The notes below the pieces were generated by a model. That model was not told the DNA's origin and made no database searches. It saw only the letters and a list, made by a program, of their open reading frames with translations. 64,000 bases of DNA from an uncultured Clostridia bacterium (GTDB taxonomy: Bacteria; Bacillota_I; Bacilli_A; RF39; UBA660): the NCBI GenBank assembly GCA_946409545.1, contig CAMJWT010000001.1:71483-135482 (forward strand), written 5' to 3'. Shown here piece after piece: positions 634 to 53,548 of this stretch (the stretch's first letter is position 1; each line of letters starts with the position of its first letter). Position numbers and translations under genes: made by a program.

Positions 634-663
634 AGATATAGAGAAATCTATATCTTTTTTTTT
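634..663 (+). terminator. rho-independent terminator after rplL
   Basis: Hairpin agatatag-(agaaat)-ctatatct followed by a T8 run. Confidence 0.5.
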
Positions 664-695
664 AGACATTTGTTATAATTACAATAGGTGATAAT

Positions 696-1247
696 ATGGA
701 TAATAAAAGAATAACAGAAGCAGAATTACAAGCGATAGATCCTACGTTTGTAGAAAGTAGTTTTATATCAAAAGTTGATAATATTTTTATAATGTTACAT
801 TCTTCTGTAATGTTAGGAAATTTAGAAAGAATTAAACATAAATTAAGTGATGAATTAATTAAAAGATATCAAAATTTAATTGATAATTTTAATGCAAATA
901 ATATAAGACAAATGTATGATGAATTAAATGTTAAATCAACAATGATAACTGGTATGTATGAAACAGAGAACGAATATATTATTGAGGTATTGTTAGTATC
1001 TAGATATATGGATTATTTAGTTAGAAAAGACAATAATCAATTTATTAGTGGTAATAATTCATATCGTACGGAAAAGAATAATTATCTAACTTTCTCTAAA
1101 AAGAAAAATGCAAAAGTAGAAGGTATGACAAGAAAATGTCCTGGTTGTAATGCAAATATTGATTCTAATAGCTCTGGTAAATGTCCATATTGTGGTACTT
1201 TCTATGATACTGTTAATTATGATTGGATTTTAAAGGATATAAGATGA
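696..1247 (+). CDS. Hypothetical protein with a putative Tim44/NTF2-like domain and a C-terminal CxxC...CxxC zinc ribbon. Paralog of 3997..4440.
   Basis: 183 aa. Ends 'CPGCNANIDSNSSGKCPYCGTFYD'. Shares 'MLxSxVMLGNLxRxKxKxSDxxxxxYQ..IDxFNxNNxRQMY...NYLTF' with the 3997 ORF. Confidence 0.4.
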   Translation: MDNKRITEAELQAIDPTFVESSFISKVDNIFIMLHSSVMLGNLERIKHKLSDELIKRYQNLIDNFNANNIRQMYDELNVKSTMITGMYETENEYIIEVLLVSRYMDYLVRKDNNQFISGNNSYRTEKNNYLTFSKKKNAKVEGMTRKCPGCNANIDSNSSGKCPYCGTFYDTVNYDWILKDIR

Positions 1248-2065
1248 AAAAAGATAATAAGAAAAGAATATTACTATTATCATTAATCTTAGGCTTATTT
1301 TTATTGTTTATTAATGTAAGAGCTGATTCAGGATATGATGTAGACTGGGGTGGAGGTGGCTCCGGCGGAGGCGGAGACATCAGTGGAATCTTTGATTTAA
1401 TCCTATTACTATTTAGAAATCCTATATTATTTATTATTGTTGTAATAATAATTGTTATTTTAGTGATTTATATGAATAAAAAAGATAAGACTTTACATAA
1501 TACAACTTCTATGGGATTAACTTTATTCACACATCGTCAAATTCCTTATGAACAAGTTAGTGCAATTCTAGGAAATATTGATATGAATGCCTTTATTAAT
1601 GATCGATTCAATGATTTTGTAGCGATTCAAAATGGATGGATGAATTTTAATCATGATTTGTTAAGAACTAAACTTACAGATGAATTATATAATCAATATG
1701 CTATTCAATTAGATACAATGCAAATTAAGAATCAACAAAATGTTATGAGTGACTTTAACTTATTCCAAGGTATGATTACAGGAATTATTCAAGAAGGAAA
1801 TAAAGTAACTTTAACAATGGAAATAATAACAGGATTCTTTGATTATTTAACCGAAAATGGACAAGTCGTAAGAGGAAAAAATGATCGAAAAGTAGTTGTT
1901 CATTATGAATTAACATTTGTATGCAATTTAGGAAGTAATGGCTTATGTCCAAACTGTGGAGCTAAGTTACCTGAAACGAATGTATGTGACTTCTGTCATT
2001 CTGTTGTTCCTAATGTTGGTACAGATTGGGTTATGTCTAAAAAAGAGACTTTAAAACAAAAATAA
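1244..2065 (+). CDS. Membrane protein with N-terminal TM helix, Gly-rich linker, Tim44-like domain and C-terminal zinc ribbon
   Basis: Start chosen at the ATG overlapping the upstream stop (ATGA), with AAGGA 8 nt upstream. Hydrophobic N-terminus, 'DWGGGGSGGGGD' linker, second TM, then 'CPNCGAKLPETNVCDFCHS'. The Gly-rich linker plus TM arrangement recalls bacterial Tim44-like (COG4395) proteins. Confidence 0.4.
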   Translation: MKKDNKKRILLLSLILGLFLLFINVRADSGYDVDWGGGGSGGGGDISGIFDLILLLFRNPILFIIVVIIIVILVIYMNKKDKTLHNTTSMGLTLFTHRQIPYEQVSAILGNIDMNAFINDRFNDFVAIQNGWMNFNHDLLRTKLTDELYNQYAIQLDTMQIKNQQNVMSDFNLFQGMITGIIQEGNKVTLTMEIITGFFDYLTENGQVVRGKNDRKVVVHYELTFVCNLGSNGLCPNCGAKLPETNVCDFCHSVVPNVGTDWVMSKKETLKQK

Positions 2066-2091
2066 CATTTACAATTCAGTTTTCTTCTAGT

Positions 2092-2757
2092 ATGATATTT
2101 CATATGAAGAAGAGACTGTTTTTTTTATTTATTTTTATAATAATATTAGTGTTTTTCCTTAATGGAATTATTGTAGGAACATCAAAAAATAGAATAATAA
2201 CTATTAATGAATTAAAGGATATCAAAGATATTGATGCTATTTTAGTATTAGGATGTAAAGTTAATCCAGGTGGTAATCCTTCTATGATGTTAGATAGAAG
2301 ATTAGAGAAGGGTATTGAAGTATATAAGACGATTGGCACAAAACTATTATTATCTGGTGATCACGGCCAGAAAGAATATGACGAAGTTAATACTATGAAA
2401 GAATATGTATTAAGTACGGATATCAATATTGATGATGTTTTCTTAGACCATGCTGGTTTTTCAACTTATGATAGTTTATATCGCGCTAAATATGTATTTG
2501 GTGTTAAAAAGATGGTTATTGTCACCCAAAGATATCACTTATTTAGGGCTCTTTATATTGCTAAATCCTTAGGAATAGAAGCTTATGGTATACCAGCCGA
2601 TAATATTCCTTATAGGTTTATAAATATTAAAAATGAAATAAGAGAAGTATTAGCAAGAGATAAAGATTTTTTCAAAGTAATAATTAAGCCAAAAAGCAAA
2701 TATTTAGGCGATAAAATTGATATTAAAGGAAGTGGAAGACTAACTTTTGATAAGTAG
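2092..2757 (+). CDS. SanA/YdcF (DUF218) family membrane protein
   Basis: N-terminal TM helix. Has 'DAILVLGCKV...PSMMLDRRLEKGIEVYK...LLLSGDHG...EYDEVNTMKEY', which fits DUF218/SanA. Start could also be the ATG at 2104; there is no clear SD for either. Confidence 0.5.
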   Translation: MIFHMKKRLFFLFIFIIILVFFLNGIIVGTSKNRIITINELKDIKDIDAILVLGCKVNPGGNPSMMLDRRLEKGIEVYKTIGTKLLLSGDHGQKEYDEVNTMKEYVLSTDINIDDVFLDHAGFSTYDSLYRAKYVFGVKKMVIVTQRYHLFRALYIAKSLGIEAYGIPADNIPYRFINIKNEIREVLARDKDFFKVIIKPKSKYLGDKIDIKGSGRLTFDK

Positions 2758-2816
2758 TCTTTTTTTTTATTTTTTTTTATGTTATAATAATTTTGATTTA
2801 AGATAGGAGGAAAAAA

Positions 2817-3941
2817 ATGGGATTAATTAAATCAGCAATTCAATCTATCAGTGGTGAACTTAGTGACCAATGGAAAGATTATATTACATGTGATGACATG
2901 GATATGAATACTTTAATGATTAAGAAGACAACTAAATCAGGTATCATATCTAAGAGTAGTGCAATTATGGTTGCGCCTGGCCAAATTGCCGTAATTTTTG
3001 ATTCAGGTAAAATTTTGGATGCAACAGCAGAAGAAGGAACTTATACTTTTGATGCTTCAACATCTCCATCATTCTTTGCAGGACAATTTGGAGCTGTATT
3101 TAAAGATTTATGGGCTCGTTTCACTTATAATGGAACAGTACCAAAACAACAAGCAGTATTCTATATTAATGCTAAAGAAATTTTGGATAATAAGTTTGGA
3201 ACACCTGCACCAGTTCCATTCCAAGATTATTCACATCCAATTCCAAATGAAATGACAGGAACTATTACACCTCTTCGTGTACAAGTTAAATGTTTCGGTA
3301 AATATACATATAAAATTACTGATCCAGCTGTATTCATGAGAGAATATGCAGGAACAGGTGATGTAGTTACTAAAGATGTTCTAAATGAACAAATGAGAAG
3401 TGAAGTTATTGCTTCATTCCAAAACGTATTAAATGAACTAGGAACAGAAGCTCATAAAGTTCCAGTTCTAGAACTTCCAAGTAGAACTGATGAAATCAAG
3501 ACTACAATGGATGAAAAAGTTTATGATGAACCAATTCGTAAACGTGGAATTCAAATTACAGGATTCGCTATTGAATCAGTAACATTAGATGATGAATCTA
3601 ATAAGAAGATTGATGAATACGAACACAATTCTAACGCTAGAATGCAACAAGGTCGTGTTCTTAACGTTATGGAAACTGCAGCAGGTAATGCTAATGGCGC
3701 AGGAGCAGGCTTTATGGGTCTAGGTATGATGAATATGGCTACTGGTGGAATGAACACTGCAGTTATGCAAAATGCTTTCACTCCACAACAACCAGCTGCT
3801 CAACCAGCAGCACCAGCTCCAGCAGCAGCACCAGGTGAAGCACCTGCAGCTCAAGGAGAAGTTGCTTTCTGTCCAAATTGTGGAACAAAATCAAGTGGCG
3901 GAAACTTCTGTACTAATTGCGGAACAAAATTACATGGTTAA
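2817..3941 (+). CDS. SPFH-like (COG4260/YdjI-type) protein with a C-terminal double zinc ribbon
   Basis: 374 aa. N-terminus 'MGLIKSAIQSISGELSDQWKDY', Ala/Pro/Gly-rich linker, then 'FCPNCGTKSSGGNFCTNCGTKLHG'. AGGAGG RBS. This architecture matches the family annotated as 'putative virion core protein'/YdjI, which is PspA-associated in B. subtilis. Confidence 0.5.
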   Translation: MGLIKSAIQSISGELSDQWKDYITCDDMDMNTLMIKKTTKSGIISKSSAIMVAPGQIAVIFDSGKILDATAEEGTYTFDASTSPSFFAGQFGAVFKDLWARFTYNGTVPKQQAVFYINAKEILDNKFGTPAPVPFQDYSHPIPNEMTGTITPLRVQVKCFGKYTYKITDPAVFMREYAGTGDVVTKDVLNEQMRSEVIASFQNVLNELGTEAHKVPVLELPSRTDEIKTTMDEKVYDEPIRKRGIQITGFAIESVTLDDESNKKIDEYEHNSNARMQQGRVLNVMETAAGNANGAGAGFMGLGMMNMATGGMNTAVMQNAFTPQQPAAQPAAPAPAAAPGEAPAAQGEVAFCPNCGTKSSGGNFCTNCGTKLHG

Positions 3942-3946
3942 TTAAT

Positions 3947-3972
3947 ATAGAAAGAGGTTTTCCTCTTTCTAT
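3947..3972 (+). terminator. rho-independent terminator
   Basis: Perfect 11-bp stem atagaaagagg/cctctttctat with a tttt loop. Confidence 0.5.
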
Positions 3973-3996
3973 ATCATTCTTTTAACGGGAGGATGT

Positions 3997-4440
3997 ATGA
4001 GCGTAGATGATTTAGTTAAAAAAGACTCTTCTTTTGGAATATCTAATTTTATTTCTGCAGCTAATAGCATGTATGTAATGTTACAATCTGCAGTCATGCT
4101 TGGCAACCTTTCACGCGTTAAAAGTAAAATTAGTGATAAAGTTTTACAAAAATATCAACATATTATTGACGAATTCAATAATAATAATCTTCGTCAAATG
4201 TATGAAGATATTAATATAAAAAAAACAGAAGTATTATCAATAACAAATAAAGATAATGATTATTACATTCAAGTATTAATCACTAGCTTAGCAAAAGATT
4301 ATGTTGTTGATAAAAAGAATTTAGAATATCGATATGGTGTTAATAATCAAAAGATTACGAAAAGTAATTATTTAACTTTTAGAAAAGATTATAATGATAT
4401 TAATAATCCATGGATTCTAGATGATATTTATACTAATTAA
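3997..4440 (+). CDS. Hypothetical protein, paralog of 696..1247 that lacks the zinc ribbon
   Basis: 147 aa. Contains 'MLQSAVMLGNLSRVKSKISDKVLQKYQHIIDEFNNNNLRQMYEDIN...NYLTFRK'. GGGAGG RBS. Confidence 0.4.
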   Translation: MSVDDLVKKDSSFGISNFISAANSMYVMLQSAVMLGNLSRVKSKISDKVLQKYQHIIDEFNNNNLRQMYEDINIKKTEVLSITNKDNDYYIQVLITSLAKDYVVDKKNLEYRYGVNNQKITKSNYLTFRKDYNDINNPWILDDIYTN

Positions 4441-4446
4441 AGAAAA

Positions 4447-4477
4447 TTATAAACATTTTTGTTTATAATTTTTTTTT
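4447..4477 (+). terminator. rho-independent terminator
   Basis: Stem ttataaaca/tgtttataa followed by a T9 run. Confidence 0.45.
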
Positions 4478-4520
4478 ATAAAAATATATGTTATAATATC
4501 TTGGATTTGTGGGTGATATT

Positions 4521-7328
4521 ATGGATAAAATAATCATTAAAGGAGCAAGAGAAAATAATTTAAAGAATATTAATCTTGAACTTCCTAAAAATAAATTAAT
4601 TGTAATGACAGGTCTATCTGGTAGTGGAAAGAGTAGTTTAGCTTTTGATACTATTTATGCTGAAGGCGAAAGACGTTATGTTGAAAGTCTTTCTAGTTAT
4701 GCTAGACAATTCTTAGGTGGAACTGAGAAACCTGATGTTGATAGTATTGAAGGGTTATCTCCAAGTATTAGTATTGATCAAAAAAGTACAAATAATAATC
4801 CAAGAAGTACTGTAGGTACAGTTACTGAAATATATGATTATTTAAGACTTTTATTTGCAAGAATTGGTGTTCCATATTGTCCTCGTCATAATAGACCTAT
4901 AACAAGTCAATCTGTTGAAGAAATTGTTAATAAAATATTAGAGTATCCAGAAGGAACTAAATTAGTTATTCTTTCACCAATTGTATATGATGAAAAAGGT
5001 ACTCATAAAGATTTATTTGATGATCTTCGTAAAGAAGGATTCATCAGGGTTAGAGTTAATGGTGAAATGTATGATTTATCAGAAGACATTAACTTAGAAA
5101 AGAATCTAAAAGATAAGATTGATATTGTTATTGATCGTATTGTTATTAAAGAGAATATTAGGACAAGATTATTTGAATCAATTGAACTAGCTACTAATAA
5201 ATCAAATGGTAAAGTAGTAGTTGATATTGTAGGTGATAAAGAAGTATTATTTTCTACTAAATATGCGTGTCCAGAATGTGATTATTCACTACCTGAACTT
5301 GAACCTCGTATCTTTAGTTTTAATAGTCCATATGGGGCTTGTCCAGAATGTAAAGGTTTAGGAACTAAATTAAAAATGGATCCTGATCTTGTTATTCCAA
5401 ATAAGGATAAAAGTTTAAATGAGAATTGTATTCAAACATTATCAGACGATAAAGAAAGTATTGATTATAAAAAGTTAGAGATTGTTTGTAAGCATTATCG
5501 TATTGATATGAATAAACCATTTAAGAAGTTATCCAAAGATAAACAAGATATTATTTTATATGGTTCTAATGAATTAATTGATTTTAAGATTACAACTAAA
5601 AGTGGTAATGTTAATAAAAGTACGACTTTCTATGAAGGTGTTATTAACAATCTAGAACGTCGTTATATGGAAACATCTTCTGAATGGATTCGTGATTGGT
5701 TATCTAACTATATGATTGAACTTGAGTGTCCCGTATGTCATGGAGCAAGACTTTCAGATGCGATTCTTAATATTTTCATTAATAAGAAAAATATTTATGA
5801 TATTACGTTAATGTCTATTTCAGAATTACTTGATTGGTTTAAAAATATAAAATTATCAGATTATCAAAAAGATATCGCTGGTTTATTAATTCAAGAGATT
5901 GTTAATCGATTAACTTTTTTAAATAATGTTGGATTATCTTATTTAACATTATCAAGACAAGCAGGTACTTTATCTGGTGGTGAAAGTCAAAGAATTAGAT
6001 TAGCTACCCAAATTGGATCAAGATTAACTGGTGTACTTTATGTACTTGATGAACCAAGTATTGGTCTTCATCAAAAAGATAATCAAAAATTAATTAATTC
6101 TCTTCTTGAGATGCGTGATTTAGGTAATACTTTAATTGTTGTTGAACATGATAGTGATACAATGCTTGCTAGTGATTACTTAGTAGATATAGGACCAGGT
6201 GCTGGTGATGATGGTGGTTACGTTGTAGCTTGTGGAACACCTTCTGAAGTTATGGCAAACCCTAATAGTATTACCGGACAGTATTTATCTGGTAAATTAA
6301 TGATTGATGTTCCTAAGAAACGTAGAAAAGGTAATGGTAAATATTTAGAAGTTTTTGGTGCTAAAGCAAATAACCTAAAAAATATTGATGTTAAATTTCC
6401 TCTTGGTAAATTTGTTTGTGTTACCGGTGTATCAGGAAGTGGTAAGAGTAGTTTAGTTAATGAAATACTTATGAAAGAAATTAGTAGTAAGTTATATAAA
6501 TCTAAAGAGAAACCGCTTGCTTTTGATAAGATTAAAGGTATTGATAATATTGATAAATTAGTCTTTATTAGTCAAAATCCTATTGGTAGAACTCCACGTA
6601 GTAATCCAGCTACCTACACTGGTGTATTTGATGATATTCGTGACTTATATGCAAGTACAAAAGAAGCGAAAGCTTTAGGCTATGGAAAGAATAGATTCTC
6701 TTTCAATGTTAAAGGTGGACGTTGTGAAGCTTGTTGGGGAGATGGTGTTAAAAGAATTGAAATGCACTTTTTGCCAGATGTTTATGTACCTTGTGAAGTA
6801 TGTCATGGAACAAGATATAATAGTGAAACACTAAGTATTAAGTATAAAGATAAAAATATTGCGGATGTTCTTGATATGAGAGTTACTGAAGCTTTGAAAT
6901 TTTTTGAAAATATACCTAAGATTAAACATAAGTTACAAACAATGGAAGACGTTGGTTTAGGTTATGTTAAACTTGGTCAATCAGCAACAACTCTATCTGG
7001 TGGTGAAGCTGGCCGTGTAAAATTATCTAAAGAACTTCAAAAAAAGCCAACAGGTAAGAGTTTATTCATTCTTGATGAACCAACAACAGGACTTCATACT
7101 GATGATATTAAGAGATTACTTGTTATCTTACAAAGAATCGTTGATAATGGGGATACGGTTATTGTTATTGAACATAACCTAGATGTTATTAAAGTATCAG
7201 ATTATATTATCGACTTAGGTCCTGATGGTGGTAATATGGGAGGAACTGTTGTAGCTTGTGGTACTCCTGAAGAAATTGCTAAAGTTAAAAATAGTTATAC
7301 AGGCGAATTTTTGTCTAAAATGTTGTAA
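4521..7328 (+). CDS. uvrA: Excinuclease ABC subunit A
   Basis: Two ABC ATPase modules ('GLSGSGKSS', 'GVSGSGKSS', 'LSGGE...') and zinc-finger Cys pairs. I prefer the ATG at 4521 over the upstream GTG at 4509. Confidence 0.95.
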   Translation: MDKIIIKGARENNLKNINLELPKNKLIVMTGLSGSGKSSLAFDTIYAEGERRYVESLSSYARQFLGGTEKPDVDSIEGLSPSISIDQKSTNNNPRSTVGTVTEIYDYLRLLFARIGVPYCPRHNRPITSQSVEEIVNKILEYPEGTKLVILSPIVYDEKGTHKDLFDDLRKEGFIRVRVNGEMYDLSEDINLEKNLKDKIDIVIDRIVIKENIRTRLFESIELATNKSNGKVVVDIVGDKEVLFSTKYACPECDYSLPELEPRIFSFNSPYGACPECKGLGTKLKMDPDLVIPNKDKSLNENCIQTLSDDKESIDYKKLEIVCKHYRIDMNKPFKKLSKDKQDIILYGSNELIDFKITTKSGNVNKSTTFYEGVINNLERRYMETSSEWIRDWLSNYMIELECPVCHGARLSDAILNIFINKKNIYDITLMSISELLDWFKNIKLSDYQKDIAGLLIQEIVNRLTFLNNVGLSYLTLSRQAGTLSGGESQRIRLATQIGSRLTGVLYVLDEPSIGLHQKDNQKLINSLLEMRDLGNTLIVVEHDSDTMLASDYLVDIGPGAGDDGGYVVACGTPSEVMANPNSITGQYLSGKLMIDVPKKRRKGNGKYLEVFGAKANNLKNIDVKFPLGKFVCVTGVSGSGKSSLVNEILMKEISSKLYKSKEKPLAFDKIKGIDNIDKLVFISQNPIGRTPRSNPATYTGVFDDIRDLYASTKEAKALGYGKNRFSFNVKGGRCEACWGDGVKRIEMHFLPDVYVPCEVCHGTRYNSETLSIKYKDKNIADVLDMRVTEALKFFENIPKIKHKLQTMEDVGLGYVKLGQSATTLSGGEAGRVKLSKELQKKPTGKSLFILDEPTTGLHTDDIKRLLVILQRIVDNGDTVIVIEHNLDVIKVSDYIIDLGPDGGNMGGTVVACGTPEEIAKVKNSYTGEFLSKML

Positions 7329-7353
7329 AGTTCTCATTTGAGAACTTTTTTTG
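7329..7353 (+). terminator. rho-independent terminator after uvrA
   Basis: agttct-(catttg)-agaact followed by T7. Confidence 0.5.
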
Positions 7354-7403
7354 TTTATTCTCTTTTATTCAATGTGATATTCTTATATTGTAGGAGAATA
7401 GAA

Positions 7404-7577
7404 ATGGATGAAAAGATTAATGAAGCTTCAGGAGAAATAAAAAAATATTTTGATAATTTACCTTTGATAGATGAAAAGGATATTAAAGACTTTAATTTTT
7501 TTGAGTCATGTTTGTATCTTGAAAAATTAAATTTATTAGATAGTTTAACAAGTAGAGAAGGTGAAGATAATGAGTGA
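7404..7577 (+). CDS. Small hypothetical protein (57 aa)
   Basis: AGGAGA RBS lies 6 nt upstream of the ATG. TGA stop overlaps the start of the next ORF. Confidence 0.3.
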   Translation: MDEKINEASGEIKKYFDNLPLIDEKDIKDFNFFESCLYLEKLNLLDSLTSREGEDNE

Positions 7578-9780
7578 AGTAGTTGCTATTAATTATCCCG
7601 CTTTTAATACAAGAGTTAAAACTAATAAAAGACAAGTTATTAAGCAGTTAGAGAAAAAAGTTGAAGAAGGAAAACTAGATATGTTAAAAGCATCATTAAG
7701 AGAGAAAAGTATTACTTTTAATGATGAAATAACTGATTATTATCAATTTGTTGATTCTCTTCAAAGTTTAACAGGACCAGATTTAATAATTGCCAATAAA
7801 TTAGTTAATAACATAAATCGTGAAGTTGATCGTATGATTTTATCATTAAAAGATGGTTCAACTAGTGCTTTTACTAAGTTTTTACAAACAGTTAATGATA
7901 AAGTATTAAGTCCTGTTGGAAATGTTGTTACGAATTCTCTTGCGATGAATACTGTTCTTAGTTTAATACCATCAATTCCTGTTAAAATGGGTGTTTCTAT
8001 TTTGTTAACAGGTATGTCTTTAACTAATATTTATAAGGTTGATAAGTATAAAATGGTTACCAATCGAACTTATGAATTAGATAAAGTATTACAAGAATTA
8101 GAAACAACAATTGATAAAGATGGTAATATTATCGATACTAGATTTAGTGAAAATGATCAAACCATTATTCGAAGTTTTTTAAAAACGAATAATGTTATAT
8201 ATGAAGATACAGGATATCTTTCTTTAAGAGAAGCGGTTTATAGTTTATCAGTTGAACAAAAAGAAGAATTATGTCGAAAACTTGATATGAATAAAGAGCA
8301 AGAGGAGCGAATTGAAAAATTAAACGATAATCTATTTACAAGAATAAGAAAAAAAGTTATAACTCCTATTGCTGTTGCTACAACCGGAGGAGTAGGTTTA
8401 GCAACGTCTATTAATTCTATTGATCCAACCCTTTTAGCAGCCCCTCTTAATGGTACACTAGTAGGAACAATTGTATCAAAATTAACCGAAAGTAAAGTAA
8501 TTGGATGGGTATCAGGAGCTATTACAGGATGCTTAAACTTTGTTGGTAAGTTTATACCTGCTATAAGTAGTTTAGTTAATAAAGTATCAGCTATAGAAAA
8601 CGTTGCAGTTCTTGCTGTAGCTGGAGCAGGTGTAGGTCTATTAGGTGTAATAGGTAAAGGCATCTATAATGCGATAAAGAATAGGAAGAATATCTTTAAT
8701 ACGCAAAAACTTCAAAAGAAATTGGCAGATAAAGATCAAGAACTATATGGAGAAAAAGATATTGAAGAAATAAGTAGAATGCGTGAGATTCTAAAAGAAA
8801 GATCTCATAAAGAAGAAACCTTTATCATTAGTATCGTATGTCAATATATGAATGAAATAGGTGTTGAATATGAAAAAGCGCCTCATAATTTACAAGAACT
8901 ACAAGAATTAATAAATGGTTTATCAAATAAAGAGAAGAGACAAATTAGAAAATTATTTGAATCATTAGAAGAATTTTTACATAGAGAACCAAATAAATTT
9001 AAAAGGTGTATGAAAAAAGCTGGTAAATTTATTAAAACGGTTGTAACTTTAGGTCTTGCTGGAATGAGTGTTACTAATATTCTTACAAGTGGTGGATTCT
9101 TTGCAATGATTAAAGAAAAGTTATTTGGTGTAGAACCGGTAGTAAAACCAGAATATTTATCGTTTGATGATTCAAAAGGAAGAGCAGCTTATGAAAGTGA
9201 ATATGGTGAGGTTATTAATGAAGTAGTAGAAACACCGATGGCAAACCCAGAACCTCAACCAGGACCTGCCCCAGTAACACCAACCCCAACGCCTACTCCA
9301 ACACCGACACCAGGTCCATCAGTAAATATGACACCAGAAACTCCAGTAACGACACCTAAACCAAAATATGTTTGTGGAAGATTACCAAAGTTAAATTATA
9401 ATTTACAGGATGTTTGCTTGGGAACAACTAACGTTGACTTATCTTCACTTCCTGATGATGAATTGTTATCATTAATTGTTAATTCACCTGATTATCGATA
9501 TACAGCACATATTTTAGAGGTAATGGATAAGGATACTTTCTTAAGATTTAAGACTTTAATTGAAAACAGTCCTAAAATAAATCGTAATGGTTGTTTAAGT
9601 TATCAATGGGTAAAAGATTGTTTGAATGCTCGAATAAATACTGAAAATCAAGTTATTAAAAATGCTATTGATGCTTATAATGCTAAAGTAAATTTAGATG
9701 ATATAACTAACAAGGTTGGTACAGGTATTGGTATAGCAGCCGCTATAACTGAAGAAGAAAAACAAGTTAAAACAAGATAA
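7570..9780 (+). CDS. Large hypothetical membrane protein with Gly-rich amphipathic/TM segments, a Pro-Thr linker and a Cys-containing C-terminal domain
   Basis: Roughly 736 aa from the ATG at 7570. Has several hydrophobic Gly-rich stretches ('AVATTGGVGLATSI', 'AVLAVAGAGVGLLGVIGKG'). Has a 'PTPTPTPTPTPGP' linker and a C-terminal domain carrying CGRLP...C...C...C. Confidence 0.5.
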   Translation: MSEVVAINYPAFNTRVKTNKRQVIKQLEKKVEEGKLDMLKASLREKSITFNDEITDYYQFVDSLQSLTGPDLIIANKLVNNINREVDRMILSLKDGSTSAFTKFLQTVNDKVLSPVGNVVTNSLAMNTVLSLIPSIPVKMGVSILLTGMSLTNIYKVDKYKMVTNRTYELDKVLQELETTIDKDGNIIDTRFSENDQTIIRSFLKTNNVIYEDTGYLSLREAVYSLSVEQKEELCRKLDMNKEQEERIEKLNDNLFTRIRKKVITPIAVATTGGVGLATSINSIDPTLLAAPLNGTLVGTIVSKLTESKVIGWVSGAITGCLNFVGKFIPAISSLVNKVSAIENVAVLAVAGAGVGLLGVIGKGIYNAIKNRKNIFNTQKLQKKLADKDQELYGEKDIEEISRMREILKERSHKEETFIISIVCQYMNEIGVEYEKAPHNLQELQELINGLSNKEKRQIRKLFESLEEFLHREPNKFKRCMKKAGKFIKTVVTLGLAGMSVTNILTSGGFFAMIKEKLFGVEPVVKPEYLSFDDSKGRAAYESEYGEVINEVVETPMANPEPQPGPAPVTPTPTPTPTPTPGPSVNMTPETPVTTPKPKYVCGRLPKLNYNLQDVCLGTTNVDLSSLPDDELLSLIVNSPDYRYTAHILEVMDKDTFLRFKTLIENSPKINRNGCLSYQWVKDCLNARINTENQVIKNAIDAYNAKVNLDDITNKVGTGIGIAAAITEEEKQVKTR

Positions 9781-11630: not shown

Positions 11631-12160
11631 AATATTTTAAAAAAATGGAAGGTGAAAAAGTATATTTATCACCAATTAATTTAGATGATTATGAAACATA
11701 TGTTAAATGGTTAAATAACCCTGTTATAACCCAATTTTTAGATTGTAATGATAGTTTAATTACTTTATCAAATGAGCAAGAATTATTACCTAAGATTGCT
11801 AATGGTGAATTTACTTATGCAATTATAAAAAAAGAAGATGATACTCTTCTTGGTAATGTAGGATTGACAAAGATCGATTATAAAAATGGTAAAGCTTCAT
11901 TAGGAATTTTTATTGGTGAAGAAGAAAATCTATCTAAAGGATATGGTAGTGAAGCTATTAAGTTAATTCTAAATTTTGCTTTTAATGAAATAAGACTTCA
12001 TAGTGTTTATTTAACAGTATTTGCTAATAATCCTCGTGCTATTAAAGCTTATACAAAATGTGGTTTTCAAGAATTTGGAAGACGTCATGAAGCTATTTAT
12101 CATGATGGAAAATATCACGATTTAGTTTATATGGAAATAATTAATAAAAACTCTTTATAG
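11627..12160 (+). CDS. GNAT family N-acetyltransferase (RimJ/L-like)
   Basis: 177 aa with a GNAT fold pattern ('...GYGSEAIKLILNFAF...'). ATGA overlap with whiA. Confidence 0.65.
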   Translation: MKYFKKMEGEKVYLSPINLDDYETYVKWLNNPVITQFLDCNDSLITLSNEQELLPKIANGEFTYAIIKKEDDTLLGNVGLTKIDYKNGKASLGIFIGEEENLSKGYGSEAIKLILNFAFNEIRLHSVYLTVFANNPRAIKAYTKCGFQEFGRRHEAIYHDGKYHDLVYMEIINKNSL

Positions 12161-12170
12161 AGTTTTTTTT
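12147..12170 (+). terminator. rho-independent terminator
   Basis: aaaactct-ttat-agagtttt followed by T8. Overlaps the GNAT stop codon. Confidence 0.45.
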
Positions 12171-12252
12171 GTAAACAAGAAAAAAACTTGGCTTAAAATA
12201 ACGTGTTTTTAAATGTTTATATGATATACTATAATAGAAGGATAGTGAGGGT

Positions 12253-13905
12253 ATGTTATCAGATAATATTTTAGTTAGTGTAAATAATATGGAAATAGAG
12301 GTTGCTAAAGGTACAACTCTTTTGGAAATAAGTAAAATGTTTAGTAACTCTGGAAGACCAAGTATAATTGCTAAAGTTAATGGTCATTATGTAGAATTAA
12401 ATGAAGTGGCTTTACCTAATAGCAATATTGAGTTTTGTGATGTAACACATTATTATGCTAATAGAGTTTATGCTAATGGTTTGATATATTTAATTAATTA
12501 TGCATTTAATGAACTATATAATGGTAAAAATACAATTGTTGTTAAACATTCTGTAGATCGTTCATTATGTATTGAAACGACTAGTAAAATTACTAAAGAA
12601 GATATAAAAAAGGTAGAAGAGAAGATGAAATCAATTGTTGATGCTAATCTTCCTATTACGAAAGTAACAGTATTAAAAAGAGAAGCAATTGATTATTTTA
12701 CAAAAACTCATGATTTATCAAAAGTTAAATTATTGAAATTTGTTTCTAAATCTTATGTTCATTTATATAAAATGGGTAATATGTATAATATGATTTATAG
12801 CAAAATGCCTGCTGAAACTTCATGTTTAAACGAATTTTCATTAACATATTTAGATGATAGTGAATTTGTATTAAGTTATCCAAATATTTATACAAATAAT
12901 AATATTCATAAATATGTTCATCATGAAAAATTCTTTGAAGTATTCCGCGATGAAAAAGATTGGGGAAAATTAATGCATATTCAAACTTGTGCTGACTTAA
13001 ATGAGATTGTATCAAATGGTAATATGAAATATTTAATAAGTATGAGTGAAAATATTCAAAATAAGAAGTTGTTACAAATAGCAGAAGATATTGTTAAGAA
13101 TCATAAACAAGTAAAAATTGTTTTAATGGCAGGACCAAGTAGTAGTGGTAAGACAACAACTTGTTCTAAACTTTCAATGGCTTTAAAGTGTTATGGTGTT
13201 ACACCAAAAATGATTTCGATGGATAATTTCTTTGTAGAAAGAGTCGATACTCCAAAGAAAGAAAATGGTGAATATGATTTTGAATGTTTAGAGGCTGTTG
13301 ATTTAAAACTATTTAGTAAGACAATGAAGTCATTACTAGATGGCAAAGAAACGGCAATGCCTACATTTGATTTCTATTCTGGTGAAAAGAAATTTAAAAC
13401 AAAAATGAAACTACAAGATGATGATATCTTATTGATTGAAGGTATTCATGCCTTAAATCCAAAAGTATTAGCGGATATTGATGCTAATAAAAAGTTCAAG
13501 ATTTATTTATCACCATTAACAGCAGTTAATATAGATAGAGATAATCGAATTTTCTTAACAGATAATAGATTGCTTCGTCGTATGATTAGAGATAATCGTA
13601 CAAGAGGATATACTCCTTCTGATACATTAAATATCTGGGATGATGTTCGTGCTGGTGAAGAGAAATATATCTTCCCATTCCAAGATGAAGCAGATGTTGT
13701 CTTTAACACATCGTTAATATATGAATTTTGTATTTTAAAAACATATGTATTACCATTATTATTCTCGGTAAAAATGGATGATCCAAATTATGATGAAGCT
13801 GTAAGACTTATGAAGGTATTAGATTTATTCTTACCAATGACAAGCGAAGCCATTCCGGCAGATTCAATATTAAGAGAATTTATAGGAAATAGTTATTTTG
13901 AATAG
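12253..13905 (+). CDS. Uridine kinase-family nucleoside kinase with an N-terminal TGS-like domain
   Basis: P-loop 'MAGPSSSGKTTT' sits in the C-terminal half. The N-terminal ~60 aa has a TGS/ubiquitin-like pattern. 550 aa. Confidence 0.65.
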   Translation: MLSDNILVSVNNMEIEVAKGTTLLEISKMFSNSGRPSIIAKVNGHYVELNEVALPNSNIEFCDVTHYYANRVYANGLIYLINYAFNELYNGKNTIVVKHSVDRSLCIETTSKITKEDIKKVEEKMKSIVDANLPITKVTVLKREAIDYFTKTHDLSKVKLLKFVSKSYVHLYKMGNMYNMIYSKMPAETSCLNEFSLTYLDDSEFVLSYPNIYTNNNIHKYVHHEKFFEVFRDEKDWGKLMHIQTCADLNEIVSNGNMKYLISMSENIQNKKLLQIAEDIVKNHKQVKIVLMAGPSSSGKTTTCSKLSMALKCYGVTPKMISMDNFFVERVDTPKKENGEYDFECLEAVDLKLFSKTMKSLLDGKETAMPTFDFYSGEKKFKTKMKLQDDDILLIEGIHALNPKVLADIDANKKFKIYLSPLTAVNIDRDNRIFLTDNRLLRRMIRDNRTRGYTPSDTLNIWDDVRAGEEKYIFPFQDEADVVFNTSLIYEFCILKTYVLPLLFSVKMDDPNYDEAVRLMKVLDLFLPMTSEAIPADSILREFIGNSYFE

Positions 13906-37081: not shown

Positions 37082-37261
37082 TATTTACTTTTTATATGTT
37101 TTATGGTATAATACAAGACAACAAAAGGGAGTAATTCCGCGTTTTATATCGTCAGGACGTTTTATACCGGTATAAAAGATTATTATTGAATGAGACTTTT
37201 GCTTAGCAAAAGTTTTTCTTTTGCTATAAATAATGATATAATGATGAAAGGAGGAATATTT

Positions 37262-38017
37262 ATGATTATTGGAATCATTGTTATTGTCGTTTTTATTATT
37301 TTAGGTTCAATTAAACAAATTGATCAATTTGAAAGAGGAATTAAATTCCAAAGAGGTAAATTCAAGAAAATTATGCAACCAGGATGGAATATCGTATTAC
37401 CTATCATTCAATCATATAGAAAGGTAGATATTCGTACTAAAGCTGTTGACGTACCAGAACAAGATGCTATTACAAAAGATAATGTAAGTGTACGTATTAA
37501 TGCTGTTATTTACTATAAGATATTCGATGCTAGTAAAGCTATTCTTGAAGTTGAAAACTTCTATTATGCTGTATCACAATTAGCTCAAACAACAATGCGT
37601 AATGCTGTTGGTGAAGTATCTCTAGATGAATTATTATCAGAAAGAGAAAAAATATCTGCAAAGATTTGTGAAATTATTGATAAAGCTACTGATCCTTGGG
37701 GAATTAAAGTAGAGAATGTTGAACTTAAAGACGTATCTCTTCCAGAAGAAATGAAGAGAGTTATTGCTCGTGTTGCTGAAGCAGAACGTGAGAAGATGGC
37801 TGTTATTACTAAAGCTCATGGTGAAGTTGAAGCTGCTGAAAACTTAAATAAGGCTGCTGAAACACTTGCTCAAAATCCAGTTGCTGTTCATTTAAGAACT
37901 CTTGAAACTATCAATGATTTATCAAGTGATCAATCAAATACTATTATTTTTGCATTACCACTTGATGTTTTAAAATCATTTGATACATACAATAAAAAGA
38001 ACAGTAAAAGTGAATAG
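37262..38017 (+). CDS. SPFH/band-7 (stomatin-like) membrane protein
   Basis: N-terminal TM helix. 'RGIKFQRGKF...GWNIVLPIIQSYRKVDIRTKAVDVPEQDAITKDNVSVRINAVIYYKI' is stomatin-like. AAAGGAGG RBS. Confidence 0.75.
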   Translation: MIIGIIVIVVFIILGSIKQIDQFERGIKFQRGKFKKIMQPGWNIVLPIIQSYRKVDIRTKAVDVPEQDAITKDNVSVRINAVIYYKIFDASKAILEVENFYYAVSQLAQTTMRNAVGEVSLDELLSEREKISAKICEIIDKATDPWGIKVENVELKDVSLPEEMKRVIARVAEAEREKMAVITKAHGEVEAAENLNKAAETLAQNPVAVHLRTLETINDLSSDQSNTIIFALPLDVLKSFDTYNKKNSKSE

Positions 38018-43127: not shown

Positions 43128-46100
43128 ATGGCTTATAAGCTAGTTAATTGTGGCGATTATCGTCAAAGAAGATCCTTCTCAAGGATAAAGAAAAGTTATG
43201 AATTAAAAGATTTACTTGAAATTCAAAAAAAGAGTTATCAATGGTTTGTTGATACAGGTATAAAAGAAGTATTTGATGACTTGTTCCCCGTAGAAAATTT
43301 CTCTGGAACTCTATCATTAGAATTTGGTGATTATCATTTTGATGAACCAAGATATTCAATTAAAGAAAGTAAGGATAGAGAGTCTACTTATGCAGCTCCA
43401 CTTAAGATTGATGTTAGATTATTTAATCATGAAACCGGTGAAGTAAAAGAACAAGAAATATTCTTAGGTGATATGCCAGTAATGACGGATAGTGGTACTT
43501 TCATTATCAATGGTGCAGAACGTGTAATTGTATCTCAATTAGTAAGAAGTCCAAGTGTATACTTTAATCGTGAAATTGATAAGAGTGGTAGAAGTTTAAT
43601 TACATCACAAATTATTCCAACACGTGGTACATGGTTAGAATTCGAAACTGATGCTAGAGATGTTGTATATGTTCGTATTGATAGAACAAGAAAAGTAGCT
43701 TTAACTACCCTTTTACGTGCTTTTGGTTTATCTAGTGACGAAGATATTTACAAAGTCTTTGGTAAAGATCCATATATTGAAAATACAATAGCTAAAGATA
43801 GTACAAGAAATACTGATGAAGCTTTAATTGAAATATATGAAAAATTAAGACCAGGAGAACCTAGTACACTTGATAGTTCTAAAAACCAAATTATTACAAG
43901 ATTCTTTGATGAATTCCGTTATGATTTAGCCCGTGTAGGACGTTATAAATTTAATAGAAAGTTAAATGTAACAGATAGATTATTAAATCAAACTTTAGCA
44001 GAAGATATTAAAGTTGATAATGAAGTTAAATTTGCTAAAGATACATTAATTACAAAAGATGTCTTAGAAGAAATGAAGACTATCTTTAATAGTGGTTATA
44101 ATTTAAAACCAGCTAAGATTAATGAAGAATTAGATACTTATGGAAATATTCAAACAATTAAGATTTATAATCCTAATGATAAGAAAGAAAAATTAATTGT
44201 AATCGGTAATGATTATAATATAGATGTTAAGAGATTAACTATTAGTGATGTTTATGCATCAGTAAGTTATTACTTAAACTTATTACATGGTGTTGGTAAC
44301 TTCGATGAAATTGACCATTTAGGTAATCGTCGTATTAGACAAGTAGGAGAATTATTACAAAATCAATTTAGAATTGGTGTAGCTCGTATGGAAAGAGTTA
44401 TTCGTGAACGTATGACTACTCAAGAAATGGATGAAGTAACTCCTAAAACATTAATTAATATAAGACCAGTTACAGCTGCTATGAAAGAGTTCTTTGGTTC
44501 ATCACAACTTTCACAATTCATGGATCAAACGAACCCACTTGCAGAATTAACTAATAAACGTCGTCTATCTGCTTTAGGTCCAGGTGGATTATCAAGAGAT
44601 AGAGCTGGTGTTGAAGTACGTGACGTTAACCCTTCACATTATGGACGTATTTGTCCTATTGAATCACCAGAAGGACAAAATATTGGTCTTATTACTTCAC
44701 TTGCTAGTTACGCTAAAATTGATGAATATGGATTTATTATGACTCCATATCGTAAGGTTGAAAATAAGAAATTAACTGATGAAGTTGTTTATTTAACAGC
44801 CGATGAAGAACAAGATTATGTTATTTCACAAGCTACTATTGAAGTAGATGATAAATTTAATATTGTACCTGAAAAAGTAACAGCTCGTTATAAAGGTGAA
44901 AATATTATTACTAAATCAGAAGATGTTGATTATGTCGATGTATCACCACAACAAGTAGTTGCTGTAACAACAAGTTGTATTCCATTCCTAGAACACGATG
45001 ATGCAACTCGTGCTTTGATGGGTGCAAACATGCAACGTCAATCAGTACCATTACTTAGAAGTGAAGCTCCATTTGTTGGAACAGGTGTAGAATATGCAGC
45101 TGCTCGTGACTCTGGTGCTGTAGTTCTTGCTAAAGCAGATGGTGTTGTTGATTATGTTGATGCTAAGAAGATTGTTATTAAAAATGCTAAGGGACAAGAT
45201 GTTTATTATATGTCTAACTATGAGTTATCAAACTCTGGTTCTATTTCACATCAACGTCCAATTGTTCATGTAGGTGATAAGATTAAACGTGGTCAAACAA
45301 TTGCTGATGGACCAAGTACTAATCAAGGTGAACTTGCCCTAGGTAAGAATATGGTTGTTGCCTTCATGACATTTAATGGTTATAACTATGAAGATGCCGT
45401 TGTATTAAATGAAAATTTAGTTAAAGACGATGTATTCACATCACTTTATCTAGAAGATTATCAAATGCAATGTCGTGATACCAAATTAGGTCCTGAAGAG
45501 ATTACTCGTGATATTCCAAATGTTAGTGAAGAATCTCGTAAGAACTTAGACGAAAATGGTATTGTAATGATTGGTACAGAAGTACATGAAGGTGATATCT
45601 TAGTTGGTAAAGTAACTCCAAAAGGTATGGCTGAACTTACTTCAGAAGAAAAATTATTACATGCTATCTTCGGTGAAAAAACAAGAGAAGTTCGTGATAC
45701 ATCACTTCGTGTTCCACATGGTGGCGATGGTATTGTTCACGATGTTAAGATATATAGTAGAAAAGATAATGATGAATTACCAGCTGGTGTTTCTAAAGTT
45801 ATTAGAATTTATATAATTCAAAAACGTAAGATTCAAGTTGGTGATAAGATGTCTGGTCGTCATGGTAATAAAGGTGTTATTTCACTTATTCTTCCACAAG
45901 AAGATATGCCATTCTTACCAGATGGTCGTCCAGTTGATGTAATGTTAAACCCAATGGGTGTTCCATCACGTATGAATATTGGACAAATCCTAGAACTTCA
46001 TTTAGGTATGGCTGCTAAGAAATTAGGAGTTTACTGTGCTACACCAGTATTTGATGGTGCAACAATAGATGATGTTCATGAAATGATGGCTGAAGCTCAT

Positions 46101-46727
46101 ATGGAACCAGATGGAAAGACTGTTTTATATAATGGTCGTACTGGTGAACCATTTGATAATCGTGTATCAGTTGGTGTTATGTATATGATTAAACTACACC
46201 ACATGGTAGATGATAAACTTCATGCAAGAAGTACAGGTCCTTATTCATTAGTAACTCAACAACCACTTGGAGGTAAAGCTCAATTTGGTGGTCAAAGATT
46301 TGGTGAGATGGAAGTTTGGGCTCTATATGCTTATGGAGCTGCTCATACATTACAAGAAATCTTAACTGTTAAGTCTGATGATGTAATTGGTCGTGTTAAA
46401 GTATATGAATCAATTATTAAAGGACAAGATGTTAATAGAGCTGGTGTTCCAGAATCATTTAGAGTTCTTATGAAAGAATTCCAAGCTTTAGGCTTAGACT
46501 TAAAGATTGTTAATGATGATGGTGAAATACTAGATCTTAAAGAAATTGAAGAAGATGAGGATAAAGAAGATATTAATCCAAATCTTGATGAGGTTGAATT
46601 AAATCCTGTTGTCAAAGATGTTGAACCAGATGATGACTGGGAAGAAGAATCAGAATTTGATGATGAGGATAGTTTAGATGATATCGATGATGAAGATATT
46701 GATTTAGATGAAGGAGGGGAATTCTAA
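43128..46727 (+). CDS. rpoB: DNA-directed RNA polymerase subunit beta, with a ~90-aa acidic C-terminal extension
   Basis: N-terminus '[16 protein letters not shown]...SYQWFVD'. 1199 aa. C-terminus '[22 protein letters not shown]...[12 protein letters not shown]'. Confidence 0.97.
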
Positions 46728-49700: not shown

Positions 49701-50377
49701 TCACTGAAGATCATGGTAAGTTCAAGATCGTTGTTGAAAATAAATTAGAGACAAAAGAACATGTAACTAACTATGGATCTAAACTTCGTGTAGAAAAAGG
49801 TGATATGGTTGTTCCTGGTGATAAATTAACTGAAGGTGCTATTAGCCCTAAAGAATTATTAACCGTAACTGACCCACTTACTACACAAGAATATATCTTA
49901 AAAGAAGTACAAAACGCTTATCGTAGTCAAGGTGTTGAAATTTCTGATAAACACGTTGAAGTTATCGCTAAACGTATGATTGATAAGATTAGAGTTGTTG
50001 ATGGTGGAGACACATATTTACTTCCTGGTTCTCTTGTTAACTTCCATGAATTTACTGATGGAAATAAGAAGATTATCATTGAAGGTAAACGTCCTGCTAC
50101 TGGTGTACCAGTTCTATTTGGTATTACTAAAGCATCTCTTGGAACTGATTCCTTCTTATCAGCTGCTTCTTTCCAAGAAACAACACGTATCTTAACAGAT
50201 GCAGCTATTCGTGGTAAGACTGATAATTTAGTTGGTCTTAAAGAAAATGTTATCGTTGGTAAACTTATCCCTGCAGGAACTGGTATTAAAGCTTATCAAA
50301 AAGTTGATTATGATCTAGCTAACCAATTCGCAGAAGATGAACCAATGGAAGCACTTGAAAACGAATTTATGGAATAA
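46727..50377 (+). CDS. rpoC: DNA-directed RNA polymerase subunit beta'
   Basis: Zn-finger '[23 protein letters not shown]' and catalytic '[12 protein letters not shown]'. 1216 aa. Confidence 0.97.
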
Positions 50378-52846: not shown

Positions 52847-53548
52847 ATGAAAAATATTTTATTGTTATCAAATGATAGCAGTTTTATGGAATCTTTTAAA
52901 GACTATGTTAAAGATAACTCTTTTTTTAAATTTAGTTTTAATAATTCCATAAAAAAAATAGTAATTAATAATTATGATTTAATAATAATTGACTATTTTA
53001 TGAGTGAATATGATGGATATGATTATTTAAAGATAATTAATAATAAAATAAAGGTTATTATTTTACTCCCTTATTATATAGATGATGTAATTAAAATGAT
53101 TTCATCTTTTAATATTTCTTATATCTTAATAAAACCTATAATTTTTTCTAATTTATTAGATAAAATTGATATTATTTGTAATAATAAAAGAAATTATAAA
53201 GAGGTTATCGATAAAGAGATTCTTAAATTATTTAGTTTTTTAGGTTTATCTTTTAAATATCGAGGTGTTTATTTATTATATAGAACAATTTTTCTTGTTA
53301 TTAATGATAATGTCCCGATTAATATAGATTTATATAATATTTTATCTAAAGAATGTGGCGATACTAAAGAGTCAATAGAACGAAATATTAGATATTCAAT
53401 TCAAGTATCTTGCTCAAGAATGAGTCCATCCATTATAGATGAATTCTTTGGTAATATTTATAATCAATATACTGGTTTAATAGGAAATCTAGAATTTATA
53501 AATGTTATTGTTAAAAATATAATAATTATGATAAATAAAAAAGACTAA
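52847..53548 (+). CDS. Spo0A-like response regulator with a partly degenerate receiver domain
   Basis: C-terminal 'GLSFKYRGVYLLYRTIFLV.NDNV...LYNILSKECGDTKESIERNIRYSIQVSCSRMS' matches the Spo0A_C pattern G-x-P-x-x-IKGY-YL..AI....ND...TK.LY..IAK....T.SRVERAIRHAIEVAWSR. The N-terminus resembles a receiver, with 'DLIIIDYFMSEYDG' and 'ILIKP', but has N-D-S in place of the acidic D-D pair. Confidence 0.5.
   Translation: MKNILLLSNDSSFMESFKDYVKDNSFFKFSFNNSIKKIVINNYDLIIIDYFMSEYDGYDYLKIINNKIKVIILLPYYIDDVIKMISSFNISYILIKPIIFSNLLDKIDIICNNKRNYKEVIDKEILKLFSFLGLSFKYRGVYLLYRTIFLVINDNVPINIDLYNILSKECGDTKESIERNIRYSIQVSCSRMSPSIIDEFFGNIYNQYTGLIGNLEFINVIVKNIIIMINKKD

Follow-up and report, generated by a model that had tools for sequence, protein, structure and literature searches.

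What kind of membrane system do five adjacent genes encode that lie between rplL and uvrA in an uncultured Clostridia bacterium, and is it a Psp system, as was first proposed? The genes stand near the beginning of a 64,000-nucleotide stretch of contig CAMJWT010000001.1 (assembly GCA_946409545.1), here called the window, and a preliminary description made from its letters alone had read them as five zinc-ribbon proteins forming a Psp-like envelope-stress module without pspA. All five open reading frames (ORF1 to ORF5, Table 1) are present as described, on the + strand, and encode two Tim44-like proteins with a zinc ribbon (ORF1, soluble, and ORF2, membrane-anchored), a SanA-like membrane protein (ORF3), an SPFH protein (ORF4) and a ribbon-less paralogue of ORF1 (ORF5). 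The explanation that we propose, with about as much confidence as doubt, is that the cluster holds an SPFH membrane module of the YdjGHI type known from Bacillus subtilis, with Tim44-like ribbon proteins acting as its anchors.

An SPFH protein of the YdjI type

ORF4 matches the Pfam family Band_7_1 (PF13421) with an E-value of 1.4e-23 (84.1 bits), and in the Pfam scan of the five ORFs each match passed the gathering cut-off of its family (29.6 bits for Tim44, 24 for Band_7_1 and 27.6 for DUF218). From its N-terminus the protein comprises an invariant amphipathic segment (MGLIK...), the Band_7_1 domain, a Gly/Met/Ala/Pro-rich linker and a C-terminal ribbon of four Cys; no transmembrane (TM) helix was found in it, the hydropathy profile showing no hydrophobic 19-mer. 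The ribbon, CPNC-x9-CTNC at residues 352-368, keeps all four Cys in 14 orthologues (alignment A2) and is one four-Cys ribbon with two look-alike knuckles, not the double ribbon for which it had been taken; SPFH orthologues carry one to three ribbons in tandem. The other features quoted for the cluster, namely the N-terminus MGLIKSAIQ..., the Ala/Pro-rich linker, a GGGGSGGGG run and the motifs shared between the Tim44-like proteins, were all found. Orthologues of ORF4 with 59-91% identity occur in about 80 species of gut Bacilli, including uncultured ones and metagenome-assembled genomes (MAGs) labelled 'Tenericutes'.

For comparison with B. subtilis YdjI, a sequence of this protein served as the probe, both ends of which match primers printed in PMC8581546, and it retrieved an authentic Bacillus protein (P0123) whose locus encodes PspA_IM30, YdjG, YdjH (TPM) and YdjI (L089). 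ORF4 is 23% identical to this protein over 333 residues (BLASTP, E 2e-16) and has the same architecture (no TM helix, an SPFH domain, a low-complexity linker and a C-terminal ribbon), in agreement with its earlier assignment to the YdjI-type SPFH proteins (COG4260). The N-terminal 18-mer of the SPFH proteins has a hydrophobic moment of 0.43-0.47, as compared with 0.49 for helix alpha-0 of PspA and 0.15 for YdjI. In B. subtilis, YdjI is soluble, and its arrival at the membrane and the recruitment of PspA require YdjG and YdjH (Scholz 2021, PMC8581546). YdjG consists of two ribbons, an NTF2-like domain and a TM helix, YdjH of a TPM domain with a low-complexity tail, and YdjI of a band-7 domain and a ribbon (Ravi 2024, PMC11237479).

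Tim44-like proteins with an inserted zinc ribbon

Three ORFs had been described as Tim44/NTF2-like, and all three match Tim44 (PF04280) in Pfam: ORF1 with an E-value of 8.6e-14 (52.3 bits), ORF2 with 3.8e-11 (43.7 bits) and ORF5 with 8.6e-15 (55.6 bits). The more specific NCBIfam models score below their cut-offs, the best value being 51 bits (ORF5) against 80 for the Tim44/TimA adaptor NF033779, and 20.5 bits against 200 for TimA NF033778. ORF1 and ORF5 are indeed paralogues (45% identity, E 5e-38), and so are ORF1 and ORF2 (25% identity, E 5e-17). We refer to proteins like ORF1 as type T, to those like ORF2 as type A, and to a further member of the same Tim44-plus-ribbon family (hhalign 99.4%, E 3e-21; and 98.2%), which has an N-terminal TM helix, a domain and a CPNCG..CxYCG ribbon, as type B. 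The names given to such proteins in the source databases are generic, and include 'predicted lipid-binding transport protein (Tim44 family)'.

CxxC pairs are confined to ORF1, ORF2 and ORF4, with none in ORF3 or ORF5, so that the count of five zinc-ribbon proteins could not be upheld. The Cys pairs of ORF1 (C148, C151, C163 and C166) and of ORF2 exist as described; the ribbon they form is not C-terminal but inserted before the last beta-strand (...DW[IV]L) of the Tim44 fold, and its knuckles are spaced by 11 residues in ORF1 and 9 in ORF2, not by 13-17. These pairs are well kept among orthologues, being present in 29 of 30 type A, all 14 type T and 38 of 39 type B sequences, as expected of the ribbons first proposed. 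ORF5 corresponds to ORF1 minus exactly the 33-residue ribbon segment and was seen only in the window and in its 90%-identical relatives (L001, L002); judged from this comparison, ORF1 was duplicated recently and the copy lacks the ribbon.

ORF2 begins with a signal-peptide-like helix, followed by a Gly/Ser stub, one TM helix and a cytoplasmic Tim44 domain with the ribbon CPNC..CDFC. The first helix ends in an invariant A-D-S/V-G motif (here ADSG), after which the Gly/Ser(/Asp/Trp) stub begins, and D28, G30 and CPNCGA are invariant in the type A alignment (A3). The GGGGSGGGG run had been read as a linker; since it lies between the signal-peptide-like helix and the TM helix, it would form an extracytoplasmic stub instead. 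Elsewhere in type A the stub after ADSG contains repeats such as SWDSGS and SYDSGS (e.g. L008 8677-9525, L013 9085-9954) and is anything from about 15 to over 80 residues long, the window version having shrunk to GGGGSGGGG. The start codon of ORF2 overlaps the stop codon of ORF1 (ATGA), and by this arrangement the two are a translationally coupled, tight pair.

Structure modelling within the Tim44-like group covered ORF1, for which AlphaFold2 (AF2), given 41 homologues, returned a confident model (predicted local distance difference test, pLDDT, 92.7; predicted template modelling score, pTM, 0.85). Foldseek matched this model with probability 1.00 to mitoribosomal mL45, human Tim44 (2cw9, TM-score 0.61), yeast Tim44 (3qk9) and Tim44 within TIM23 complexes, with a further match to yeast Tim44 2fxt; as modelled, ORF1 has the Tim44/NTF2-like alpha+beta fold. 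PDB sequence searches with profiles of the T family and the SPFH family gave generic ribbon matches only and so found no solved relative of either family.

Alternative partners beside one SPFH orthologue group

The neighbouring genes were classified in 89 loci centred on SPFH orthologues, the window among them. YdjG-like and/or TPM genes lie directly 5' of the SPFH gene in 47 loci, about half of which also have type B; type A and/or type T Tim44-ribbon genes accompany it in 24, including the window; type B alone is found in 11; and the remaining 7 have no partner. The YdjG-like class is a true homologue of YdjG (35% identity, E 2e-74), the TPM class matches YdjH (E 1e-12), and in sister species the order YdjG-YdjH-SPFH is the same as in B. 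subtilis. Neither YdjG, with its two N-terminal ribbons, central domain and C-terminal TM helix, nor YdjH is present anywhere in the 64-kb window. The two sets of partners never meet at one SPFH locus: YdjG/TPM together with A/T was observed in none of the 89 loci, where about 13 were expected (Fisher p = 1e-10). Some of the partnerless loci are YdjG/TPM deletions in an otherwise identical context (L057 and L060, as compared with L055), and others have an unrelated pilin-like gene upstream.

SPFH and A/T genes are adjacent in at least four orders (T-A-SanA-SPFH, SPFH-T-A-SanA, SPFH-A-(A)-T and A-T-SPFH), which indicates that their association arose repeatedly or has been maintained. The arrangement of the window is identical in its 90% relatives (L001, L002), an 80% relative has the permuted order SPFH-T-A-DUF218, again between rplL and uvrA, and relatives closer to the middle of the range have SPFH-A-(A)-T or A-T-SPFH. 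Type B, from the same family, stands directly 5' of the SPFH gene in 39 loci.

Two further genes recur in these neighbourhoods. A long DUF5684 membrane protein of 476-926 amino acids (aa), with a huge Pro/Gln/Met-rich low-complexity region, is encoded immediately 5' of type B and SPFH in five loci (L005, L016, L017, L026 and L079), and the largest of these (L005 3436-6216, 926 aa) has a C-terminal CPVC..CPIC ribbon; this protein may be a further ribbon-bearing partner. Many YdjG-TPM-SPFH loci have a gene for an ankyrin-repeat protein of about 250 aa 3' of SPFH (L055 9304-10062, L057, L060), which precedes genes for MiaB-like and YlbF-like proteins.

Absence of PspA from the examined loci

PspA probes, validated against Pfam as PspA_IM30 (PF04012; E 2e-41 and 9e-49), found no PspA when the window and 88 loci (1.4 Mb) were translated in all six frames, and the profile set found none in 80 further loci; the PspA-sized ORFs of the window do not match it either. 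The absence of PspA/IM30 noted earlier is therefore correct for the 64-kb window, and since it extends to all 169 related loci examined, it is a rule of the whole clade and not a peculiarity of this locus. The cluster could nevertheless belong to a Psp-like envelope-stress response that uses a PspA/IM30 protein encoded elsewhere, or that replaces PspA. We consider this improbable. The homology of ORF4 to YdjI and the YdjGHI-like context in relatives speak for it, as do the link that YdjI makes between PspA and the membrane in B. subtilis (PMC8581546) and the proposal that band-7 operons may act with PspA homologues encoded elsewhere (Ravi 2024, PMC11237479). Set against these points are the missing PspA signal in the window and the related loci, the lack of any visible stress-type promoter or regulator, and the Tim44-like proteins themselves, which show no homology to Psp components beyond a generic ribbon. 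Homology of the central domain of YdjG to the Tim44-ribbon proteins was considered but could not be shown: in profile-profile comparison only the ribbon (28 columns) aligns, and the Tim44-like proteins can no longer be counted as accessory parts of Psp systems. With no PspA nearby, the locus is better read as a known type of membrane-organisation module in variant form than as a Psp system.

A proposed Tim44-like platform for the SPFH scaffold

The YdjGHI-type module that we propose would work as follows. ORF4 would be the scaffold, an SPFH protein like YdjI that is soluble or peripherally bound. ORF2 is predicted to be a single-pass membrane protein with a cytoplasmic Tim44/NTF2-like domain that carries the inserted zinc ribbon, and ORF1 its soluble partner, so that on the cytoplasmic side of the membrane the pair could form a Tim44-like platform of two domains. 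This platform would recruit or position the SPFH oligomer, as YdjG and YdjH do for YdjI in B. subtilis, with the amphipathic N-terminus of ORF4 probably aiding membrane binding. The likely output would be the organisation or maintenance of a membrane region, independent of PspA. The protein contacts, the membrane localisation and the physiological role are inferred from genomic association, from the logic of substitution and from analogy.

A broader claim, that the pair of Tim44 domains with inserted ribbons, split or in tandem, is a widespread bacterial inner-membrane tether and, exchangeable with YdjG/YdjH, a second kind of receptor for SPFH scaffolds that bear ribbons, we make only tentatively. 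If it is true, the Tim44-ribbon pair would do in bacteria what Tim44 and mL45 do as membrane tethers in mitochondria, and the CPxCG ribbons common to both partners might serve as docking elements.

The A-T pair apart from SPFH genes

A reciprocal collection of 80 metagenome loci, gathered from the type A motif, shows how the pair behaves on its own. In about 75 of the 80 a type A gene has a type T gene as its neighbour, and the gap is mostly -25 to +12 nucleotides (nt). An exhaustive profile search returned 4,019 representative clusters at 50% identity (2,313 at E 1e-10 or better), and many of the top matches are proteins of 410-760 aa with two Tim44-ribbon domains, i.e. natural A-T fusions (P0361, P0375 and P0377; the distant P0406, P0425 and P0437). 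Some of these fusions come from distant high-GC lineages, and tandem-fusion versions in distant phyla have other domains added. The adjacency, the fusions and the loci without SPFH together indicate that the type A and type T proteins act jointly and that, as a unit, the pair is autonomous.

Several observations weigh against a module that joins this pair to the SPFH protein. SPFH is adjacent to type A in only 19 of 67 non-duplicate loci of the reciprocal collection and, among 19 loci with at least 3 kb on both sides, in 6, and from its absence beside about two thirds of the A-T loci it follows that the pair also works without an adjacent SPFH gene. The identity of ORF4 to YdjI is low, and ORF4 has an additional N-terminal segment. 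One contig (L095) has an A-T pair (6004-7436) located 5 kb upstream of SerS and a YdjG-like gene (12117-12866, E 5e-47) that runs off the contig end, which suggests that both partner sets may coexist in one genome and that their exclusivity, which holds for adjacency, may not be genome-wide. ORF4 has its own promoter-like element and a strong terminator, so co-transcription with ORF1 and ORF2 is not indicated. An AF2 model of the fusion P0361, built with 18 homologues, gave confident single domains joined by disordered linkers (pTM 0.41) and holds no information on how the domains pack. To our knowledge, the Tim44-ribbon family has so far remained uncharacterised.

Much of this would be expected if two independent membrane modules stood side by side, an autonomous Tim44-ribbon pair (with its ORF5 copy), e.g. 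a lipid-binding or lipid-transfer unit, and an SPFH protein acting separately, their adjacency reflecting a shared cellular location or co-regulation and no complex. This is the rival that we rank first, and we hold it to be rather unlikely. The A-T loci lacking SPFH within 6 kb, the other domains on the tandem fusions of distant phyla, the separate transcription signals of the SPFH gene and the lipid-binding label among the source names are all in its favour. What it does not readily accommodate is an adjacency of about 30% in several gene orders, far above expectation for unrelated genes, together with the strict exclusion between A/T and YdjG/TPM beside orthologous SPFH genes and the position of type B, from the same family, directly 5' of SPFH.

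Comparison with known systems

With the pspA-ydjGHI operon of B. subtilis the cluster has in common the ribbon form of YdjI (FCPNCG..FCxNCG), seen in ORF4, and partners that combine ribbons with a TM anchor, as YdjG does. It differs in the absence of PspA, in the Tim44-like ribbon proteins that occupy the place of YdjG and YdjH, in the extra MGLIK... N-terminus of ORF4, and in that the window cluster is not a single operon and has no known sigma-W context.

The C-terminal domain of Tim44, mL45 and the alphaproteobacterial TimA are tethers at membrane surfaces, and human Tim44, yeast Tim44 and mL45 can each be superposed on the ORF1 model (TM-score about 0.6). Unlike these, ORF1 and ORF2 have an inserted four-Cys ribbon, occur as a split pair (one TM-anchored, one soluble) or as a tandem fusion, and have no link to protein import or ribosomes.

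In the SPFH-NfeD pairs and flotillins (FloA/FloT, HflK/C, QmcA-YbbJ) an SPFH scaffold gene likewise stands beside a gene for a small membrane protein, which is thought to anchor or regulate the scaffold; ORF4, in contrast, belongs to the Band_7_1 subfamily and has neither a TM helix or hairpin nor an NfeD partner. The window has a second, classical SPFH gene at 37190-38017 (275 aa, Pfam Band_7 E 7.5e-39), 33 kb from the cluster. The 222-aa ORF beside it (36413-37081) has no Pfam match, and an NfeD partner was not identified there.

YdjI-type modules and their link to PspA are already published, and B. subtilis YdjG/YdjH/PspA is, as far as we know, the only such case studied. No paper in the searched literature mentions Tim44-like and SPFH proteins together, and what could be searched yielded nothing on the pairing of SPFH with Tim44-ribbon proteins, on the exclusivity towards YdjG/YdjH at the SPFH locus or on the split or fused two-domain Tim44-ribbon family. 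That one SPFH orthologue group stands beside YdjG/YdjH or beside Tim44-ribbon proteins, and never beside PspA, suggests that PspA is a Bacillus-specific addition to an older module of SPFH plus anchor. The same alternation suggests that bacterial Tim44-like proteins, which are almost unstudied, may tether SPFH scaffolds. This offers a testable hypothesis on several thousand proteins that are still uncharacterised, and it sets the bacterial relatives of Tim44 and mL45 in a functional context; its practical impact is moderate, as the organisms are uncultured gut Bacilli and the evidence is computational.

ORF3, transcription signals and the surrounding window

ORF3 matches DUF218 (Pfam, E 4.5e-22, 78.8 bits) and, like E. 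coli SanA and other YdcF-like proteins, combines this domain with an N-terminal TM helix. The name SanA, its best NCBIfam match, is justified for a DUF218/SanA-like protein and not for a SanA equivalog, the score being 95.3 bits against a cut-off of 363 (NF008092). A DUF218 gene is linked to SPFH in just 4 of the 89 loci, all from the window's own clade, which removes it from the parts of the module as first listed; by this distribution ORF3 is a clade-specific neighbour and not part of the core.

Table 1. Genes and predicted transcription signals of the cluster region (window coordinates)
Feature	Position	Strand	Basis
rplL, 5' neighbour of the five-ORF cluster	240-617
AT-rich hairpin and T-run after rplL, probable terminator	634..655	+	fold -9.5 kcal/mol, z -1.8 (weak)
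TGTTATAAT, extended -10 element 5' of ORF1	671..679	+	sequence match
ORF1, type T, soluble Tim44-like protein with four-Cys ribbon	696..1247	+	Pfam Tim44
ORF2, type A, membrane-anchored Tim44-like protein with ribbon	1244..2065	+	Pfam Tim44
Promoter-like TTTACA-17-TATGAT right before ORF3	2068..2096	+	consensus match only; speculative
ORF3, DUF218/SanA-like membrane protein	2092..2757	+	Pfam DUF218
TGTTATAAT, extended -10 element 5' of ORF4, then AGGAGG ribosome-binding site	2780..2788	+
ORF4, YdjI-type SPFH protein	2817..3941	+	Pfam Band_7_1
Intrinsic terminator after ORF4, 13-bp stem	3945..3974	+	fold -17.2 kcal/mol, z -5.2
ORF5 (T5), ORF1 paralogue without ribbon	3997..4440	+	Pfam Tim44
AT-rich hairpin and T-run after ORF5, terminator	4439..4476	+	fold -13.8 kcal/mol, z -7.2
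TGTTATAAT, third copy in the cluster region, 5' of uvrA	4489-4497	+
uvrA, 3' neighbour of the five-ORF cluster	4509-7328

The element TGTTATAAT has seven exact copies in the window (671, 2780, 4489, 27547, 29126, 36387 and 58425), all on the + strand and most of them 20-40 nt 5' of an ORF start. This number is not above chance, being reached in 7 of 100 shuffles, and it is the strand and the positions that are suggestive; the element is probably the organism's preferred extended -10 promoter form. In a sigma-70 promoter scan the number of matches equalled the shuffled expectation. The promoter-like sequence before ORF3 ends 7 nt before an ATG at 2104 that has no Shine-Dalgarno sequence, and thus the ORF3 mRNA may be leaderless. 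Taken from these signals, the cluster looks like separate transcription units (ORF1-ORF2, possibly with ORF3; ORF4; and ORF5 by read-through) and not like one operon.

SPFH/band-7 proteins are found in some defence contexts, and nine phage records hold distant partial homologues (at most 33% identity), so that an anti-phage defence module or mobile-element cargo was also weighed. It appears extremely improbable, given that PADLOC returns only DrmMII at E 0.008 with no passing stretch, that relatives keep the cluster in its place between rplL and uvrA, that the base composition of the cluster matches the remaining window, and that no integrase or repeats were noted.

The window has a GC content of about 28%, with nearly all genes on the + strand, and an Rfam scan of its whole length at gathering thresholds found no family. 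Between uvrA and lgt (7338-9780) lie a 79-aa ORF and a 739-aa ORF, which are missing from the 90%-identical relatives, where lgt directly follows uvrA. The 739-aa protein, in which a PTPTPTPTPTP linker and several hydrophobic segments can be seen, matches nothing in Pfam, NCBIfam or PADLOC; an 875-aa gene at the analogous site of L008 was considered as its counterpart and proved unrelated.

The genes rplL and rpoB are neighbours in most bacteria; here rplL is about 42 kb away from two ORFs of 1199 and 1216 aa (43128-50377), judged to be rpoB and rpoC from their size only. In L001 the Tim44/SPFH cluster comes after the series secE-nusG-rplK-rplA-rplJ-rplL. A Spo0A homologue is encoded at 52847-53548 (Spo0A_C, E 2e-14, plus a receiver domain), which suggests, although related MAGs bear 'Tenericutes/Mycoplasmatota' labels, that an endospore-forming Firmicute is either the lineage itself or its ancestor.

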